From contig DAOUJO010000003.1 in the NCBI GenBank assembly GCA_034422595.1, positions 197,761-261,760 on the forward strand: a stretch of DNA of 64,000 nucleotides. The letters run 5' to 3'. Positions 3,004 through 45,299 of the stretch are shown piece by piece. Source of the DNA: Dehalococcoidia bacterium (lineage in GTDB: Bacteria > Chloroflexota > Dehalococcoidia > Lucifugimonadales > Australimonadaceae). The position numbers and the translations under genes are program-made. The number at the start of each line of letters is the position of its first letter. Position 1 is the first letter of the stretch. The notes under the pieces were generated by a model. The model saw only the letters and a list, made by a program, of their open reading frames with translations. It ran no database searches and was not told where the DNA came from.

Positions 3004-3573
3004 TCAGGGGACGACTTCCGTATCCGGCGCGCTCCGCGCGGCGGGGACAGCCGTCTGCTTCGTACCCGCGGCCACGCCGCCACGGGTCATCGCTACCCGT
3101 CCTGTACGCATCGTCTCGCGGACGCCGAAGGGCTGAAGGAGCTTGATGAGCGCGTCTATCTTCCCCTCGTCGCCTGTCACCTCGACGATGACCGTGTCGT
3201 TGCCCACATCCACGATGCCTGCGCGGAAGATGTCCACGATCTGCATGATCTCCGCGCGGTTGTCCTTGTTGGACTTCACCTTGAGCAGGGCCATCTCGCG
3301 CACGACGCTGCTCTCCGACGAGATGTTCGTGACTCGCACGACGTCTATGAGCTTGTAGAGCTGCTTCGTCACCTGCTCCACCACCCAGTCCCCGCCCTCG
3401 ACGACGAACGTCATGCGGGAGAGCCCCGCCGTCTCACTGTGACCGACCGCCAGGCTGGAGATGTTGAACCCGCGCCGCGAGAACAGTCCCGCGACGCGCG
3501 CCAGCACCCCCGGCTTGTCGTGGACCAGCGCCGTAATGGTGTGGACGCGCCCGTTCAGGCTTACGTCAGCCAT
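3004..3573 (-). CDS. ilvN: acetolactate synthase small (regulatory) subunit
   Basis: ACT-domain sequence [44 protein letters not shown]... The ATG at 3573 overlaps the ilvB stop by 13 nt. The Arg-rich 5' extension of track ORF 3004..4095 lies inside ilvB and was rejected. Confidence 0.9.
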
Positions 3574-5261
3574 GACAGCGCTCCCTGCCCAGCGGGCGAT
3601 TCGATCATCTCGAACACGCTCTCTCCTGCGGGAACGTGCGGGTACACGTTCTCCTCCGGTTCCACGTGGAAATCGATGATGGCCGGCCCGTCCACGGCAG
3701 CAGCCTCTTCCAGGGCTGACCGCACCTGCGGCTCGTCCGTCACGTGCTTCGCCCATATGCCGTAGGCCTCGGCGATCTTTACGAAGTCCGGGTTGCCGGT
3801 ATAGCCGGACGCCACGCGCGAGCCCCCGTAGAACAGGTCCTGCAGCTGCCGCACGAGGCCAAGGTTGTTGTTGTTCAGGACGGCGAACTTCACCGGCACG
3901 TTGTGCTCCACGATGGTCGCCAGTTCGGACATCGTCATCTGGAAGCCGCCGTCTCCGGCGATGCTCCACACCTGCCGGTTGGGCTGTGCAAAAGCGGCGC
4001 CCATCGCCGCGGGCACCTCGAACCCCATCGTCCCCAGCCCGCCGGACGTTATCCAGGAGCCGGGCTCCTTGAACACGTAGTGCTGGGCCGCCCACATCTG
4101 GTGCTGCCCCACGCCCGTAACGACGATGGCGCGACCGTCCGTGACGTCACACAGTTCGCGGACGACGTGCTGCGGACGGAGCCCGCTGCCCTCGCCGGAA
4201 CCCAGGGGATGCCCGGCACGCAGCGCGTCTATCTCCGACATCCATTCGGGACGCGACACCTGCTCCACCTGCTTGGCGAGCGCGTGCAACACGCGCTTCG
4301 CGTCGCCGACGATCGGCACCGTCACGCGTACGTTCTTGCCGACCTCGGCGGGGTCTATGTCTATGTGGATGACCTTCGCGTTCGGCGCGAAGGCGCTCAA
4401 CCTGCCCGTGACCCGGTCGTCGAACCGCATCCCGACCCCGATGATGAGGTCGGCGCGGTCTATCGCCCAGTTGTTGTACGCCTGCCCGTGCATCCCAGGC
4501 ATGCCCATGCTCAGGACGTGCTCGCCGGAGAAGCTGCCGATGCCGAGCAGCGTCGTGATGACAGGTATCTGCGCCTTCTCCGCAATCTCGCGCACCTCTG
4601 CGAACGCGCCGGAGATGATCGCGCCGTGCCCCACCATGAGCAGGGGGCGCTGCGAGTCCGCGATGAGTTGCGCGGCGCGCTTGATCATCTGCCCATGCCC
4701 CTCCATCGTCGGTTTGTAGGAGGGGAGGTCGACGTGCTCCGGGTAGTCGAAGTCGTCGCTCTCGGTGAGCACGTCGCGCGGCAGGTCGATGAGCACCGGG
4801 CCGGGACGTCCCGTGCGTGCGATGTGGAACGCCTCGCTCATGATGCGCGGGATGTCCGCCGTGTCCATGACGAGGTAGTTGTGCTTGGTGATGGGCAGCG
4901 TGATGCCGGTGGTGTCGGTCTCCTGGAACGCGTCCCGTCCGATGGCGGCGCGCGGCACCTGCCCCGTGATCGCCACGACAGGCACGGAGTCCATCATCGC
5001 GGTCGCGAGCGGCGTGACGAGGTTCGTCGCCCCGGGCCCCGAGGTCGCGACGGCGACGCCCACCTTGCCGGACGCGCGTGCATAGCCGTCCGCTGCATGG
5101 CCGGCGTTCTGCTCGTGCCGAACGAGGATGTGCCGCAGCTGCGGGTACTCGGGCAGCGTCTGGTAGAGCGGCAGTATCGCGCCGCCGGGGAGGCCGAACA
5201 TGACGTCCGTCCCCTCCCGCACCAGGCTTTCGCAAACCATCTGTGCGCCTGTCAAACGCAA
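3561..5261 (-). CDS. ilvB: acetolactate synthase large (catalytic) subunit, ThDP-dependent
   Basis: MRLTGAQMVCESLVREGTDVMFGLPGGAILPLY... with a GDGGFQM ThDP motif. TTG start at 5261 with an AAAGGTGA RBS. Confidence 0.95.
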   Translation of the reverse strand: MRLTGAQMVCESLVREGTDVMFGLPGGAILPLYQTLPEYPQLRHILVRHEQNAGHAADGYARASGKVGVAVATSGPGATNLVTPLATAMMDSVPVVAITGQVPRAAIGRDAFQETDTTGITLPITKHNYLVMDTADIPRIMSEAFHIARTGRPGPVLIDLPRDVLTESDDFDYPEHVDLPSYKPTMEGHGQMIKRAAQLIADSQRPLLMVGHGAIISGAFAEVREIAEKAQIPVITTLLGIGSFSGEHVLSMGMPGMHGQAYNNWAIDRADLIIGVGMRFDDRVTGRLSAFAPNAKVIHIDIDPAEVGKNVRVTVPIVGDAKRVLHALAKQVEQVSRPEWMSEIDALRAGHPLGSGEGSGLRPQHVVRELCDVTDGRAIVVTGVGQHQMWAAQHYVFKEPGSWITSGGLGTMGFEVPAAMGAAFAQPNRQVWSIAGDGGFQMTMSELATIVEHNVPVKFAVLNNNNLGLVRQLQDLFYGGSRVASGYTGNPDFVKIAEAYGIWAKHVTDEPQVRSALEEAAAVDGPAIIDFHVEPEENVYPHVPAGESVFEMIESPAGQGALSWLT

Positions 5262-5325
5262 GATCGACTCACCTTTCCCTTTCGTTCAACCGATCATTCC
5301 GTAACCGGAGCGCCCCTCCGAAGGT

Positions 5326-39221: not shown

Positions 39222-39703
39222 GCCTCCGCCTGCAACGCGGCGAGCAGCCGGACGTAGCGCTCGCCGTGCGGCTCCAGCGTCAGCACCCGGGCATCCGGCG
39301 TGGCGCCGAAGGCGATGCCGACCGCAAGGTGCTCGTCAGGAAAGACGGCCTGCGCCTGCTCCGGCCATTCGACCACGCACGCTCCTTCCTCCAGCATCTC
39401 GCCGAACGCCAGATCGTCTATCTCGAGGTCGCCGCCATCCATCCGGAAGAGGTCCACGTGGTAGACGGGGATGCGGCCCCGGTACTCGTGCACGAGCACG
39501 AACGTCGGGCTGTGCGCGTAGCCGGTCACACCCGCTCCCCAGGCGACGCCCTGCGTCAGCGTCGTCTTGCCCGCGCCGAGCGTTCCGCGCAGCAGATAGA
39601 GGTCGCCGGGCTCCGCAAGCGCGCCGAGCCTGCGCCCGAGCGCCTGCGTCTCCTCGGCGCTGTACGTTTCGAACCGGGTATCCGTCACCGCAAGTGCTCC
39701 CAT
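39218..39703 (-). CDS. tsaE: tRNA t6A37 biosynthesis ATPase TsaE (YjeE)
   Basis: ...LYLLRGTLGAGKTTLTQGVAWG...SPTFVLVHEY...VYHVDLFR. The ATG at 39703 overlaps the thiL end by 19 nt. The longer track ORF was rejected. Confidence 0.85.
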   Translation of the reverse strand: MGALAVTDTRFETYSAEETQALGRRLGALAEPGDLYLLRGTLGAGKTTLTQGVAWGAGVTGYAHSPTFVLVHEYRGRIPVYHVDLFRMDGGDLEIDDLAFGEMLEEGACVVEWPEQAQAVFPDEHLAVGIAFGATPDARVLTLEPHGERYVRLLAALQAEA

Positions 39704-40677
39704 CCTTCGATGTCGATAGAGACCGGCTCGCCGCGCCCCGCGACGAATGAGATACCGCCCGCCGGACCCTCCGTGATCTCGCCGATAACCACGCTGCCGG
39801 GGATCTCGGAAACGGCGTCCTGCACGAGGTCCGACGGGCCGGTGAACAGTAGTTCGTAGTCCTCGCCGCCGCCCAATGCCAGCCGCATCGCATCCGGGCG
39901 GAACTCGCTCCGGAGCGCATCCGCCGCAGGCACATGGTCGACCTCGACCCGCGCCGCGACGCCGGACGCTTTCGCGAGCTTGGGCAGGTCGGCGGCGAGC
40001 CCGTCCGACAGGTCCATCGCGCAGCGCACGCCGACGCGGCGGAGCACGGCGCTCGCGTCCGTCCGCGCTGCGGGCCTGCGGTGCGCAAGCGCAAGCGCCT
40101 GCCGCGCGGGGGTGTCCAGCCCGGCGCCGCTCTCCAACAGCAGCAGTCCGCCGCGCGAGCCGCCGAGCGGGCCGGTGACGGCGAGCGCGTCGCCGGGGCG
40201 GGCCGCCGACCGGGACAGCGGCGTGGCGCTGCACACGCCGGTCATGGCGACGGTAACGAACGCGACGGGCGAGCCGACGATGTCCCCGCCCATCAGTTCC
40301 GTGCCGTAGACGGCGCACGCTTCCAGCATGCCGTCGTACAGCGCGTCAACGTCGCCCACGTCGAGGTCGGCGGGCAGGCCGAGCGATACCAGGCCTGCGA
40401 AGGGCGAACCGCCCATGGCGGCGATGTCGCTCACGTTGGAGACCCACGCCTTCCAGCCCACGTCCGCCCATGACGCGGTGGACGTGCGGAAATGGACGCC
40501 CTCGACCATCGTATCGGTCGTGGCGGCCTGCACGCCGGCCACGCGCCACGCGGCAGCGTCGTCCCCGATGGCGGTGATGACGCGCCCACCCATCGCCTGC
40601 AGCGGGCTGGCACGGCGCACACGCTCGACGATGCGCTCGATCAGCGCCGTCTCCCCCAGTTCTCCGACCGTGGTCAT
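39685..40677 (-). CDS. thiL: thiamine-monophosphate kinase
   Basis: MTTVGELGETALIERIV...IGDDAAAW...MVEGVHF... is the AIR-synthase-like fold. Confidence 0.9.
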   Translation of the reverse strand: MTTVGELGETALIERIVERVRRASPLQAMGGRVITAIGDDAAAWRVAGVQAATTDTMVEGVHFRTSTASWADVGWKAWVSNVSDIAAMGGSPFAGLVSLGLPADLDVGDVDALYDGMLEACAVYGTELMGGDIVGSPVAFVTVAMTGVCSATPLSRSAARPGDALAVTGPLGGSRGGLLLLESGAGLDTPARQALALAHRRPAARTDASAVLRRVGVRCAMDLSDGLAADLPKLAKASGVAARVEVDHVPAADALRSEFRPDAMRLALGGGEDYELLFTGPSDLVQDAVSEIPGSVVIGEITEGPAGGISFVAGRGEPVSIDIEGWEHLR

Positions 40678-40781
40678 GGGGGCATTATCGCAAAAACGTC
40701 CGCCGCGGAGGGGTCTCCTTCGACAAGCTCAGGATGAACGGGCTTTTGTCAGCGCGGGGCGTATACTGGTCTCAGGGCAAC

Positions 40782-42287
40782 ATGTCACGACTATCCCTCA
40801 CCACTCTGCTCGCCGCCGCCTTCCTTGTCGCAGGGTGCACCTCCACGGCCTACACGCCCGAGCCGCCCACACCGACCCCGACGCACACGCCGACCCCTGC
40901 GCCGACGGCCACTCCCGCCCCCACGAGCGCACCCGCATCAACGTCGGATCACCCCTACGACCCGAACAACACGATGTGGCGCATCTTCAGCACCACCGAC
41001 CAGACGTTCGAGTCCCTGCAGCTTGCCCTCGACGACGCCGTTGCGGCGAACGACACCTCCCAGGTGCCCATCATCGTGGAGATCATGCGTTTCAGCGGCG
41101 CGCCTGCGGTGATGGACGCGTACCGGGAGGCGCTCGTGAGCCTCACCGGCCAGGACTTCTGGCTCGATCCGCCTGCGTGGAATGCGGCGATGGAGTGGCT
41201 GGGGCCCCGCAGGGACGAGTTCCCTCCGCCGGACGAGTACCTGGACTGGAAGGTGAACATCCTCGGGCTCATCGACCCGCGCATGGCGGCGTTCTTCAGC
41301 GCCGCCCCTGGCTCGGAGCGCATCGATCTCACGGAGGCCGTCTGGGGCGGGGTACGCACCGACGGCATCCCCGACCTCCAATTCGCGCCCACGCTCACCC
41401 CGGAGGAGGCGGACTACCTGGACCCGCGCGACCGTGTCTTCGGCGTCTCCATCAACGGCGAGCACCGCGCCTATCCGCTGCGCATCATGAACCCGCACGA
41501 GATGGCGAACGACCGGTTAGGAGGCGAGCCGATAGCGCTCGCCTACTGAACGCTCTGCTTCAGCGGGATCGTGTATTCCGCAAAGATAAACGGGGAGCCC
41601 ACCACGTTCGGCACGTCCGGCATGCTCTACCAGAGCAACAAGCTGATGTACGACCGCACGACGAACTCGATCTGGAACCAGTTCACGGGCGAGCCCGTCG
41701 TCGGCCCGCTGGCGGACAGCGGCATCAAGCTCGACTTCTTCCCGTCCGTGCTGACGACGTGGGAGGAGTGGCTGGCCGAACACCCGGACACGACGGTACT
41801 GAACGTCGATACCGGCGTCTACTCGCCAGCCGTCTATGCCCACGAGTGGGAGCCGCACGCCATCTACTTCGACTACTTCTCATCGCCCCGGACGATGTTC
41901 CCGGTCTTCAACCGGGACGAGGCGCTGCTCCCCAAGGAGACGGTCATCGGCGTGGGCATCGGTGGGGACTACAAGGCTTACCCCGTCTCCGCGTTTCAGG
42001 AGGAGCCGGTCATCAACGACGTGGTGGGCGGGCAGGAGATCGTCATCACCGGATCGAGCACCTGGGGCACGGGCAGGGTCTACGAGCGGGGTGGACAGAC
42101 GTTCGCCGGGGAAGGCGAAGGACTGCGGGACTCGGACGGAGCGCTGTGGACCATCGGCGAGGATGCGCTGACCCGGGCGGACGGCGCCGGGACGCTGGCC
42201 CGCATACCGACGATAACGTCGTTCTGGCACGGGTGGTTCTCGTTCCACCCGGATACCGCCCGCTACGAGGGCAGCCAGTCCGGTTAA
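40782..42287 (+). CDS. DUF3179 lipoprotein with one in-frame TGA (41547..41549): candidate selenoprotein or recently inactivated pseudogene
   Basis: Track ORFs 40734..41549 and 41571..42287 share one frame and are separated by a single stop. Lipobox LLAAAFLVAGC, then a PT linker. The DUF3179-type domain is continuous across the stop (...GGEPIALAY-TGA-TLCFSGIVY...FGTSGMLYQSNKLMYDRTTNSIWNQ...). Confidence 0.6.
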
Positions 42288-42296
42288 AAGGAAGAA

Positions 42297-42312
42297 GGCG
42301 GGTCTCCCCGCC
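42297..42312. terminator. GC hairpin between convergent genes (possible bidirectional terminator)
   Basis: GGCGGG-TCTC-CCCGCC lies 10 nt after the DUF3179 stop. The flanks are only weakly T/A-rich. Confidence 0.35.
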
Positions 42313-42475
42313 CTTCATTCCTCTGCCAGCGTTCCCGGCACACCTCTTATCCGTCGCTCCTTCGCGTATCGAGGGCGGAGCCACCCATGTCCGTGCCGGT
42401 GTTCGTCTGCAACACTCATGCTACCGGCAGAGTATTGCGTCCCCGTTACACGAACGTTAAGGGAGTGTTACGGCT

Positions 42476-43747
42476 TCAGGCTGCGCCCACGTACATCTTC
42501 TGCATGAGCGCGTCCTGCCAGCGGACGCTGTCCGGCAGCACCTCTTCGATGGCGCGGATGTGGTAGTAGGAGTCGTTCGCGCCCAGGGGAGTCCCGCCGT
42601 CCTCCATCGTGCGTATCGCCTGCATCAGCATCTTGCGGGCGGTGATGACGGCGCGGTCGGTCTGGCCGAGGTGCTCCTGGCTGCGGTCGACGATAGGCTT
42701 CATCGCCTCCTGCACTGCCCGGTCCTGCGCGTTGATGCCCTTGATGCCGGTGAACGTGTCGGTACGCTGGATATCGCGGTCGATCAGCCAGTTGTTGCGC
42801 GGGTTGCGCAGGCTGCGCCACGTCGTCTGGTCGACGTCGTCGGGGCCGTTGCCGGTGGCGAGCTCGTCGCGCTCAGCCTGGGTGAGAGGCTCGTCAAGCG
42901 TGTAGAACCAGTTCCAGACCATGGTGGTCTCGTCGTCCATGGGCACCCAGTGGTGTCCGGCGATCTTGAACTTGAACCAGGAGCCGTCGTTGTTCAGCTG
43001 CGCCGCACGGATCTGGACGTGGGGCATCACGTAGTGGTAGGTGCGGACGTAGTTGGCGTCCTCGCCGGGCAGAGGGCGGACCGAGCCGTAGCGGTAGCCG
43101 TAGTCCGTGGGCTCGACCTCCAGCTTCGAGGCCGTTGCCTTGGCGCGCAGACCGTCCAGGCCCCCCGCCCCGCCGGTGCCGAACTTGCGATGGAGGAAGG
43201 ACGAGTGCACCGAGTCGATGCCGCCTTCCAGCGCCTGCAGCCAGTTGCACTCCTCGATGACCTTGGAGGCGTGCCGGTGGGTCTGGGGTTGCCGCGTGAA
43301 CTCGAACGAAGGCTCGGGCGGCGTCTGCTCCTTCGGCCCCATGTAGGTCCAGATGACTCCGCCCAACTCCACGGTCGGGTATGCCGTGATTCGCACCTTG
43401 CGGCTGAAGTCGTACTGCGCCGGTTCGTTGGGCATGTCGACGCACGCGCCGTCCACGTCGAACTTCCAGCCGTGGTAGACGCAGCGGATGCCGCTCTCCT
43501 CGTTCCGGCCCAGCCAGAGCGACGTAAGGCGGTGGGGGCACCACTCGCTCATGAGGCCGACGCGGCCCGACGTATCGCGGAACGCGATGAGGTCCTCGCC
43601 GAGGATACGCAGGCGCAGGGGGTCGCAGTCGGGGTGCGGCAACTCGTGAGAGATGAGGACGGGCTGCCAGTAGCGGCGCATCAGCTCGCCCATCGGCGTG
43701 CCGGGCCCCACGCGGGTCAGTCGCTCGTTGTCCCTGGTCGAAAGCAT
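42476..43747 (-). CDS. Rieske (2Fe-2S) non-haem iron oxygenase, alpha-only (phthalate/KshA-like) type
   Basis: ...MRRYWQPV...CPHRLTSL...CVYHGWKFD... is the Rieske CxH / CxxH motif. No adjacent beta subunit. Confidence 0.85.
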   Translation of the reverse strand: MLSTRDNERLTRVGPGTPMGELMRRYWQPVLISHELPHPDCDPLRLRILGEDLIAFRDTSGRVGLMSEWCPHRLTSLWLGRNEESGIRCVYHGWKFDVDGACVDMPNEPAQYDFSRKVRITAYPTVELGGVIWTYMGPKEQTPPEPSFEFTRQPQTHRHASKVIEECNWLQALEGGIDSVHSSFLHRKFGTGGAGGLDGLRAKATASKLEVEPTDYGYRYGSVRPLPGEDANYVRTYHYVMPHVQIRAAQLNNDGSWFKFKIAGHHWVPMDDETTMVWNWFYTLDEPLTQAERDELATGNGPDDVDQTTWRSLRNPRNNWLIDRDIQRTDTFTGIKGINAQDRAVQEAMKPIVDRSQEHLGQTDRAVITARKMLMQAIRTMEDGGTPLGANDSYYHIRAIEEVLPDSVRWQDALMQKMYVGAA

Positions 43748-43823: not shown

Positions 43824-45233
43824 TCACCCACCCCGCAGCAAACGGAGGAAGTCCGTGACGTCCGCTACGTCGTCGAGACCTTCCGTCATGTCGATGACCT
43901 CGTCGATCGTTGCGTCGTTCAGCGGCGTCCCGGCGTGGACGGCGCAGGCGCGGAACTTCTGGTGGCGCTGGTCGTCGGTGAGCGGGTTGTCGCGATGGCC
44001 CGGGGCGGCGTCCACGCGCTCGGAGAGGGTCTCGCCGCCGGCGAGCGTCACTTCCACGACGCCGGACTTGCCGAGCGATTCGTCCACCTCGTATTCGGTG
44101 ACGTTGGCGATGCGCAGGCACGTCTCCTCGAACAGCCCCTGCGGGGTGGGCTGGAGGTCGGCCAGCGTCACGTTGCCGGTGGTGAGCGCGCGGGCGGTCG
44201 CGAAGATGATCGAGTCCTCGGCCTCGACGGGCGCCTGCGGGTTGCGGCGGGTCTGCAGGGGCTCGCAGAACGTCTGGATGTGCGGTTCGCCTCGCAGCAG
44301 CACGTGGGTCACTGTCGACGGGTCGGGCACACGCGTCGCTCGCAGGTTCGCGGCGGCCTCGATGAACACGTGCGCGACGCCGGTGGTGGGCCACGGCTTG
44401 ATGCCCACGTTCAGCAGATGCCACTCTTCGCCGAGGCCGTCGCTCATCGCAGGGCGGTGGAACACGCCGCCGTAGTAGGTGGGGAAGAAGCCTGCCGCGC
44501 CCTCGAACGCGTCGCAGTCGCCGAGCAGCCCCTCGCGCGCCAGCAGCACGCTCTGCATCCCGGCCTGGCAGGAGAACGCGGCGTAGATCGCTTTCGCGGG
44601 ACGCCCCTCCAGCACGGGTTGCCGTCCGCCGGACGCCTGCATGAACGCGAGTCCGAGCGCGCTGTGCGTCTCCCGCGGAGAGAAGCCGAGCATGCGCGAC
44701 CCGCTCATTGCCGCGGCGAAGCAGCCCGGCATCTGCGTCGGCTGCGGCCTCGATTCCGTGAACGCGCCCTGTGTCGCGGTGATGGCAATGCCGATGCGCG
44801 ACATGAGCTCCATCCCCGCCGCCAGCGCGGTCATGAACTCCCTGCCGGACGCCCCGCCCCGTAACTCCGCGGCCACGAGCGCCGTCGGCAGCGTCACCGG
44901 CCCGAGGTGGCCGGAGCCGACGGCGGTGGTGTCGTCGAAGTTCAGCGCGTGCGCCATGCCCCCGTTCAGCATCGCGGCCACGGCGGCGGGCAGCCTGTCC
45001 GGCAGGCCGATGAGCGATGCCTCCTCGACGCCGCCGGCGCGCCGTGCCCAGGCGAGCAGCTCCGGGATGCCGATGCCGAGCGTGTTGGCCGCGATGGAGG
45101 TGGCGAGCGTGTCCAGCGTGATCGAGCGGACCGTGCGGCGCACGCTCTCCGGCAGGTCGTCGTACGTCAGCTCTGCGCCGAACCGCGCCCACAGGGAGGT
45201 CAGCTCTTCCACGCCTGCATCCCGTGTCGTCAT
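43824..45233 (-). CDS. MmgE/PrpD family protein (2-methylcitrate dehydratase-like)
   Basis: 469 aa, ...LTYDDLPESVRRTVRSITLDTLATSIAA... is a typical PrpD-family N-terminus. Confidence 0.85.
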   Translation of the reverse strand: MTTRDAGVEELTSLWARFGAELTYDDLPESVRRTVRSITLDTLATSIAANTLGIGIPELLAWARRAGGVEEASLIGLPDRLPAAVAAMLNGGMAHALNFDDTTAVGSGHLGPVTLPTALVAAELRGGASGREFMTALAAGMELMSRIGIAITATQGAFTESRPQPTQMPGCFAAAMSGSRMLGFSPRETHSALGLAFMQASGGRQPVLEGRPAKAIYAAFSCQAGMQSVLLAREGLLGDCDAFEGAAGFFPTYYGGVFHRPAMSDGLGEEWHLLNVGIKPWPTTGVAHVFIEAAANLRATRVPDPSTVTHVLLRGEPHIQTFCEPLQTRRNPQAPVEAEDSIIFATARALTTGNVTLADLQPTPQGLFEETCLRIANVTEYEVDESLGKSGVVEVTLAGGETLSERVDAAPGHRDNPLTDDQRHQKFRACAVHAGTPLNDATIDEVIDMTEGLDDVADVTDFLRLLRGG

Positions 45234-45299
45234 TCCACGCTCCTTCCAACTCTATCGGCGGTGTGCATTATGACACTCATGCAGTAGTAGCATGCGCTC

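Follow-up and report, generated by a model that had tools for sequence, protein, structure and literature searches.

We examined a 64,000-nt stretch of DNA (the window) from a Dehalococcoidia bacterium (GenBank assembly GCA_034422595.1, contig DAOUJO010000003.1, positions 197,761 to 261,760 of the forward strand), in which a gene for a DUF3179 lipoprotein carries an in-frame TGA at 41547..41549. This UGA is very probably a real selenocysteine (Sec) codon in an exported protein. The reading is supported by the pairing of Sec with Cys in homologs, the conservation of the TGA among relatives, purifying selection downstream of it, a hairpin that is conserved and covaries, and a related genome that encodes SelB along with the same gene. 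The actual insertion of Sec, the export as a lipoprotein and the redox chemistry are inferred.

An initial annotation, made from the sequence of the window, had called the gene a candidate new selenoprotein. Comparative data strongly support the part of that proposal in which the UGA encodes Sec with a selenocysteine insertion sequence (SECIS)-like hairpin downstream. The novelty does not hold, since two reviews already count DUF3179 (PF11376), with the motif UxxC/T, among the prokaryotic selenoprotein families (PMC9312934, Table 1, 2022; PMC13188914, 2026). What we describe is a missed annotation in a family catalogued since 2007, not a new selenoprotein family or mechanism, and the window gene is an ortholog that had gone without annotation, in a clade whose members very commonly have the Sec form.

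The in-frame TGA and its column among relatives

As the initial annotation had noted, the TGA is the sole stop separating two open reading frames (ORFs) in the same frame, 40734..41549 and 41571..42287. Reading through it from the ATG at 40782 gives a product of 501 residues in which Sec would be residue 256, in agreement with the earlier outline of a single lipoprotein of about 500 residues, with a Pro-Thr linker and a DUF3179 domain that runs across the stop. The ATG at 40782 is probably the start, judging from homologs that begin near the equivalent position; the in-frame ATG at 40734 is a possible alternative. The gene is laid out as follows.

40782..42287, + strand: complete coding sequence of the predicted selenoprotein, 501 codons plus TAA (from translation, the PF11376 match and the homolog alignment)
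40782..40838, + strand: lipoprotein signal peptide MSRLSLTTLLAAAFLVAGC with lipobox V-A-G-C and Cys19 as the predicted lipidation site (read from the sequence)
40839..40949, + strand: flexible linker rich in Pro, Thr and Ala, residues 20-56 (variable and gapped in the homolog alignment)
40950..41360, + strand: all-helical N-terminal domain common to the Chloroflexota family (from the alignment and the AlphaFold model of the Cys homolog P0088)
41361..42257, + strand: beta-rich DUF3179 domain (PF11376), residues 194-492 (Pfam match, unbroken across the TGA)
41547..41549, + strand: UGA, inferred Sec codon, residue 256 (in the column of the conserved Cys of homologs)
41547..41558, + strand: U-T-L-C (UxxC) motif, residues 256-259, presumed redox or metal-binding centre (from the alignment and the model of the Cys homolog)
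42285..42287, + strand: true stop TAA, matching the stop of the Cys-form homologs in relative position

The PF11376 match is nearly complete, covering profile positions 2-292 of 292 with E = 3.6e-76 and 256.8 bits against a cutoff of 27. No Pfam model matched the N-terminal helical domain (40950..41360), and no NCBIfam model exists for the protein. Read by eye, residues 1-19 make up a signal peptide with a basic R3, the hydrophobic run LTTLLAAAFL and V-A-G-C at residues 16-19. The N-terminus thus fits the lipobox pattern [LVI][ASTVI][GAS]C on direct reading, and Cys19 is near-invariant in the homolog alignment.

The residues around the UGA read GGEPIALAY-U-TLCFSGIVYSAK. Aligned with full-length homologs, the TGA falls on the first Cys of a near-invariant A-Y-C-T-L-C-G motif. 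The initial annotation was therefore right to place it at the first Cys of a CxxC pair, and wrong about the surrounding motif, given as Y-C-P-L-C-G-S where homologs have C-T-L-C-G. At the protein level, the best full-length homologs in a collection of 5.8 billion proteins reached at most 51% identity, and all of them had Cys at this position. A DNA-level search of GTDB species genomes recovered 60 related loci, many of them 66-96% identical. The codon at the TGA position is TGA in 43 of these as well as in the window, and TGC or TGT in 15. Protein identity of the TGA-form loci to the window runs from 96% down to approximately 42%, a Thermoflexus metagenome-assembled genome (MAG) included.

All 42 complete TGA loci from this search continue for 242-267 uninterrupted codons past the TGA and reach their stop at the same point as the Cys forms. 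In pairwise comparisons with the window, the ratio of nonsynonymous to synonymous substitution rates (dN/dS) was 0.19-0.46 downstream of the TGA and 0.09-0.42 upstream. Because the downstream values resemble the upstream ones, the half of the gene past the TGA must be translated and under selection. The Thr-Leu-Cys that directly follows the TGA in these loci is invariant in amino acids and synonymously variable in its codons. As it lies before any restart codon, ribosomes must read through the TGA to make it.

A second scan of GTDB genomes used a composite DNA signature of the TGA, the T-L-C codons and the downstream hairpin. It returned at least 120 matches, and each of the 120 listed falls within a DUF3179 gene. 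The orthologs with TGA and conserved downstream structure that the initial annotation had suggested looking for are thus abundant. The listed matches come almost entirely from Dehalococcoidia/SAR202 MAGs, including many complete chromosomes, many of them long-read; among their complete copies, 105 of 107 continue for approximately 240-259 codons after the TGA.

The initial annotation had also raised a pseudogene, a recent nonsense mutation or a base-call or assembly error (TGC or TGT to TGA) as an alternative. A single substitution turns TGC into TGA, gene callers split the gene, the 5.8-billion-protein collection holds no full-length homolog above the identity limit given above, and two copies from UBA bins are frameshifted. 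Against this stand the same TGA in the 43 related loci and the signature matches, drawn from independent assemblies, a second disruption in none of the 42 complete copies of the DNA-level search, and purifying selection that is equal in the two halves. Of the marks of a pseudogene, extra disruptions in relatives are confined to 2 of the 107 complete copies among the listed signature matches, and selection downstream is not relaxed. These data refute a mutation or error, to which we assign next to no probability.

The TGA might instead be a true stop, with a 255-residue N-terminal lipoprotein and a C-terminal protein that is initiated at GTG 41571 and then assembles with it. Such a GTG does lie in frame, 22 nt past the TGA, and 41571..42287 is listed as an ORF. 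The translated T-L-C codons between the TGA and the GTG speak against this arrangement, and the GTG itself sits in the loop of the hairpin described below. Lacking a signal peptide of its own, the C-terminal half would have no way to reach an N-terminal half that is exported. Moreover, both Pfam and the structure model show one continuous beta-rich unit across the site. We consider a split gene extremely unlikely and return to the Sec codon as the preferred reading.

Several side observations concern the loci compared here. The window shares 93% nucleotide identity with locus L003 over 7.5 kb, which makes it a congener of the GTDB representatives, distinct from each of them; the host is a marine or sponge SAR202 (Dehalococcoidia) bacterium. 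Two distant TGA-form DUF3179 paralogs with the same hairpin occur on OZ253584.1 (L048/L092 and L116) and on OZ240229.1 (L064 and L152). Typical SAR202-type TGA-form genes were also found on two sponge-MAG contigs labelled Bacteroidetes (L059) and Actinomycetes (L074), which are probably mis-binned.

The hairpin downstream of the UGA

A small hairpin follows the UGA within the coding sequence, and a short block of codons overlaps it.

41563..41581, + strand: SECIS-like hairpin, stem 41563-41569 / 41575-41581, apical loop CGUGU at 41570-41574 (from folding and conservation)
41565..41579, + strand: 15-nt block GGGATCGTGTATTCC encoding G-I-V-Y-S (synonymous sites frozen in the TGA forms)

The stem has 7 bp in the window, of which a 6-bp core (41564..41580) is conserved, and the 5-nt loop begins 20 nt past the UGA. 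The initial annotation had drawn a longer hairpin at 41558..41585 with its loop 19 nt from the UGA. Its location was correct, as was the statement that the spacing falls in the range for bacterial SECIS (bSECIS) elements; the distance was one nucleotide short, and the outer CUU/AAG pairs are confined to the window's own clade, only the upper part being conserved. In that clade, Phe (TTC) replaces the near-invariant Gly after the CxxC (41556..41561, 41583..41585), which adds the 3 bp (CUU/AAG) at the foot of the hairpin. With this change from Gly to Phe, the structure of the RNA may have shaped a residue beside the active site.

Beginning 18 nt past the TGA, every TGA form has the codons GGR-ATC-GTG-TAY-TCC (G-I-V-Y-S). 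Among 39 unique TGA sequences, codons +7, +8 and +10 show a third-position entropy of 0 bits. In the Cys forms, Ala takes the place of Val at codon +8, and the third-position entropies are 0.70 (+7), 1.53 (+8), 0.84 (+9) and 0 (+10) bits. RNAalifold, applied to 28 unique sequences, returned the 6-bp stem. Pairs 19:33, 20:32 and 23:29 are intact in all 28, pair 21:31 is AU in some and GU in others, and there is covariation at the closing pair 18:34 (CG in 20, UA in 4, GC in 2). In the same 28 sequences, 90.3% of the cells were paired, compared to at most 63% when the partner was slid. The covariation score of the hairpin was above that of all 500 shuffles.

The published bSECIS model calls for a loop of 3-9 nt, a stem of 4-16 bp, a minimum free energy (MFE) of at most -7.5 kcal/mol, a G in the first two loop positions that is usually followed by G or U, and a UGA-to-loop spacing of 16-37 nt (PMC13188914). 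The window hairpin has a 5-nt loop with G and U as its second and third bases, a stem of 6-7 bp and a spacing of 20 nt. Its MFE in a 29-nt context, -8.8 kcal/mol, is within the limit of the model.

Under the standard bacterial pathway, the hairpin at 41563..41581, with its CGUGU loop, would serve as the SECIS in the mRNA. SelB carrying Sec-tRNA(Sec) would bind it and, competing with RF2, would supply the ribosome with Sec. The block GGRAUCGUGUAYUCC is unchanged in well over a hundred Dehalococcoidia species genomes in which the protein diverges down to approximately 42% identity. We offer as a tentative idea, on balance a doubtful one, that it might be a lineage-specific minimal SECIS tuned to the SelB of Chloroflexota, and that Sec-form DUF3179 might rank among the most widespread selenoproteins of marine SAR202 while being systematically missed in annotation.

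Selenocysteine machinery in the lineage

A complete 2.73-Mb Dehalococcoidia chromosome, OZ252245.1, carries both a TGA-form DUF3179 gene (L138) and SelB (L362). The DUF3179 protein is 51% identical to that of the window and its gene has the same hairpin; the SelB is full-length, with 626 residues and a TIGR00475 score of 342 bits against a cutoff of 242. When the SelB-specific G1 motif, written in high-GC codons, was used as a search pattern, it found 120 loci, 119 of which match Escherichia coli SelB by tblastn. A degenerate DNA pattern for the Chloroflexota variant MTIELGFAW added 118 further loci, with SelB in all of them. This peptide (L183, L192 and L303-L420) is a near-exclusive N-terminal marker of Chloroflexota SelB, and several of the loci have selA or tRNA-Sec alongside.

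In published tables, SAR202 bin16, the source of a TGA ortholog 92% identical to the window gene (L007), is credited with one COG3276 (SelB), one COG0709 (SelD) and one COG1921, and bin22, the source of L088, with one SelB and one SelD (Slaby et al. 2017, Table S4). BSepDB, in which Sec-utilizing status requires at least two genes of the Sec pathway, classes Dehalococcoidia bacterium UBA1141 (the source of L129) as Sec-utilizing and credits it with 49 selenoprotein genes. Together with the SelB of a related TGA-form genome, these records show that the lineage clearly uses Sec, and the source genome itself would be expected to do so.

Two candidates for Sec genes near DUF3179 loci were rejected. 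The divergent neighbour in the window (39685..40677, - strand) is ThiL and not SelD, scoring 263.6 bits with TIGR01379 (cutoff 184) and 73.9 with the selD model (cutoff 125); ThiL belongs to the AIR-synthase family, which explains weak false SelD matches in tblastn. This ThiL gene divergently adjoins the DUF3179 gene in the window and in approximately 25 related loci, a conserved synteny. SelA-like matches lie a few kb from DUF3179 in three genomes (L115 1627..2757, L081 5264..5710 and L165 33..482). The first of these was rejected as SelA because it belongs to the DgaE family (TIGR01437, 217 bits; TIGR00474, 57 against a cutoff of 268). Owing to such DgaE paralogs, COG1921 counts overstate SelA in these MAGs and are unreliable.

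Several observations weigh against a Sec codon. Neither the 64-kb window nor the regions flanking the DUF3179 loci contained selA, selB, selD or tRNA-Sec; the window has no tRNA genes of any kind. The literature gives no experimental incorporation of selenium for DUF3179, and the entries for the family are computational predictions. Two of the 107 complete copies among the listed signature matches are frameshifted downstream, both in older short-read UBA bins; these frameshifts (L129 from UBA1141 and L130 from UBA1123) lie 211 and 81 codons past the Sec codon and stem either from errors of assembly or from genuine decay. The hairpin is small and, for a GC content of 67%, not unusually stable (z = -0.55 over 54 nt and -2.2 over 29 nt). 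Finally, the covariance-model scan that the initial annotation had proposed gave no support: at a permissive threshold, Rfam returned no family and no SECIS match in the hairpin region. Given the weak stability and the lack of an Rfam match, the case for the hairpin rests on conservation and covariation.

In a further explanation, programmed read-through of the UGA inserts a standard amino acid (e.g., Trp or Cys, by near-cognate decoding) and the hairpin stimulates it without SelB. A short hairpin outside any curated SECIS family, and selenium incorporation that is a prediction, would be compatible with it. However, the UGA replaces the redox-type Cys of a CxxC, which is the classic pairing of Sec and Cys, and the hairpin resembles bSECIS elements in the sequence of its loop and in its spacing. 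A genome that carries the same gene also encodes SelB, the lineage is reported to be rich in selenoproteins, and DUF3179 is already classed as a selenoprotein family. Read-through with a standard amino acid is in our judgment very unlikely, and Sec remains the preferred identity of residue 256.

The protein, its genomic setting and known selenoproteins

P0088, a Cys homolog that shares 53% identity with the window protein, gave a confident AlphaFold model (pLDDT 94.2, pTM 0.91). The model consists of a helical N-terminal domain (residues 2-122) and the beta-rich DUF3179 domain, in which the CxxC occupies the turn that joins two beta strands. A Foldseek search of the PDB with this model returned nothing significant (best E = 0.12), and there is a weak local likeness to Rieske-ferredoxin/NirD beta folds at a Foldseek probability of approximately 0.6. 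Searching PDB sequences with the DUF3179 protein found no relative, and no function is reported by the papers that mention DUF3179 in the library searched.

By analogy with other UxxC selenoproteins, the U-x-x-C turn would most likely be a selenenylsulfide redox centre or a knuckle that binds soft metals. The best-supported reading of the whole is an extracytoplasmic, lipid-anchored protein that would use the lipoprotein export route. In the product, the U-T-L-C centre would sit where a beta-hairpin of the DUF3179 domain turns; once exported, the protein would be anchored through the lipid on Cys19 to the outer face of the membrane.

Four other pairs of same-frame ORFs in the window are split by one TGA, and all were rejected as selenoproteins because they are ordinary adjacent genes: an amidohydrolase/D-aminoacylase-like pair, a KH protein and RimM, MnmA and RNase HII, and a fourth that ends in a glutamine amidotransferase-like gene. 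One further feature lies directly downstream of the DUF3179 gene.

42295..42314, no strand assigned: GC-rich hairpin between the DUF3179 gene and the convergent Rieske oxygenase gene, terminator-like on the minus strand only

Convergent to the DUF3179 gene are a Rieske/LigXa-type oxygenase gene (42476..43747, - strand) and an MmgE/PrpD-family gene (43824..45251, - strand). Catabolic genes of this kind are typical of SAR202, and nothing points to a functional link between them and the selenoprotein. Elsewhere in the window, a T-box leader (RF00230, 5344..5572, - strand) is the only Rfam match at the gathering threshold, which is 93 bits for this family; it scores 101.2 bits. It stands directly upstream of a 574-codon ORF (3561..5285, - strand), presumably an aminoacyl-tRNA synthetase or amino-acid gene.

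The main value of these results is a correction of annotation, with a modest lead on a very conserved mini-SECIS in Chloroflexota. No full-length called homolog exceeds 51% identity even though genomic orthologs reach 96%, so gene callers seem to split all Sec forms systematically. As a result, those who analyze genomes of SAR202 bacteria and sponge symbionts will see two fragments or a pseudogene instead of a single selenoprotein that is conserved and exported. The gene also extends the view that marine Dehalococcoidia are rich in selenoproteins, and its conserved pair of UGA and mini-hairpin is a possible test substrate for Chloroflexota SelB.

Both reviews that list DUF3179 cite Zhang & Gladyshev 2007, a study of the Olavius algarvensis symbiont metagenome (PMC1976440) in which the names used are OS_HP1 and OS_HP2; the order of table entries suggests which of the two became DUF3179. 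The window gene resembles the catalogued family in its Pfam domain, in a Sec that comes first in UxxC and aligns with Cys, and in a stem-loop directly downstream, and its motif matches the published listing. The original members come from deltaproteobacterial symbionts of worms, whereas the window copy belongs to a large clade of Chloroflexota/Dehalococcoidia (SAR202). What sets the window clade apart from those members is an additional helical domain at the N-terminus, a lipoprotein signal and the highly conserved mini-hairpin.

Two broader comparisons place the element and its product. Like the SECIS of E. coli fdhF and the bSECISearch consensus, the window hairpin lies within the coding sequence 3′ of the UGA, with a small loop that has an early G-U and with a spacing in the 16-37 nt range. 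Its stem is far shorter (6-7 bp), however, with no evident bulged U, an unrelated sequence and no Rfam match, and its binding by SelB is putative. As for the protein, exported UxxC oxidoreductases among the selenoproteins (DsbA-like and thiol-disulfide isomerase-like) share with it the UxxC motif, a predicted extracytoplasmic location and homologs with Cys. The DUF3179 fold is not thioredoxin-like, and the likeness is one of working principle and not of family membership.

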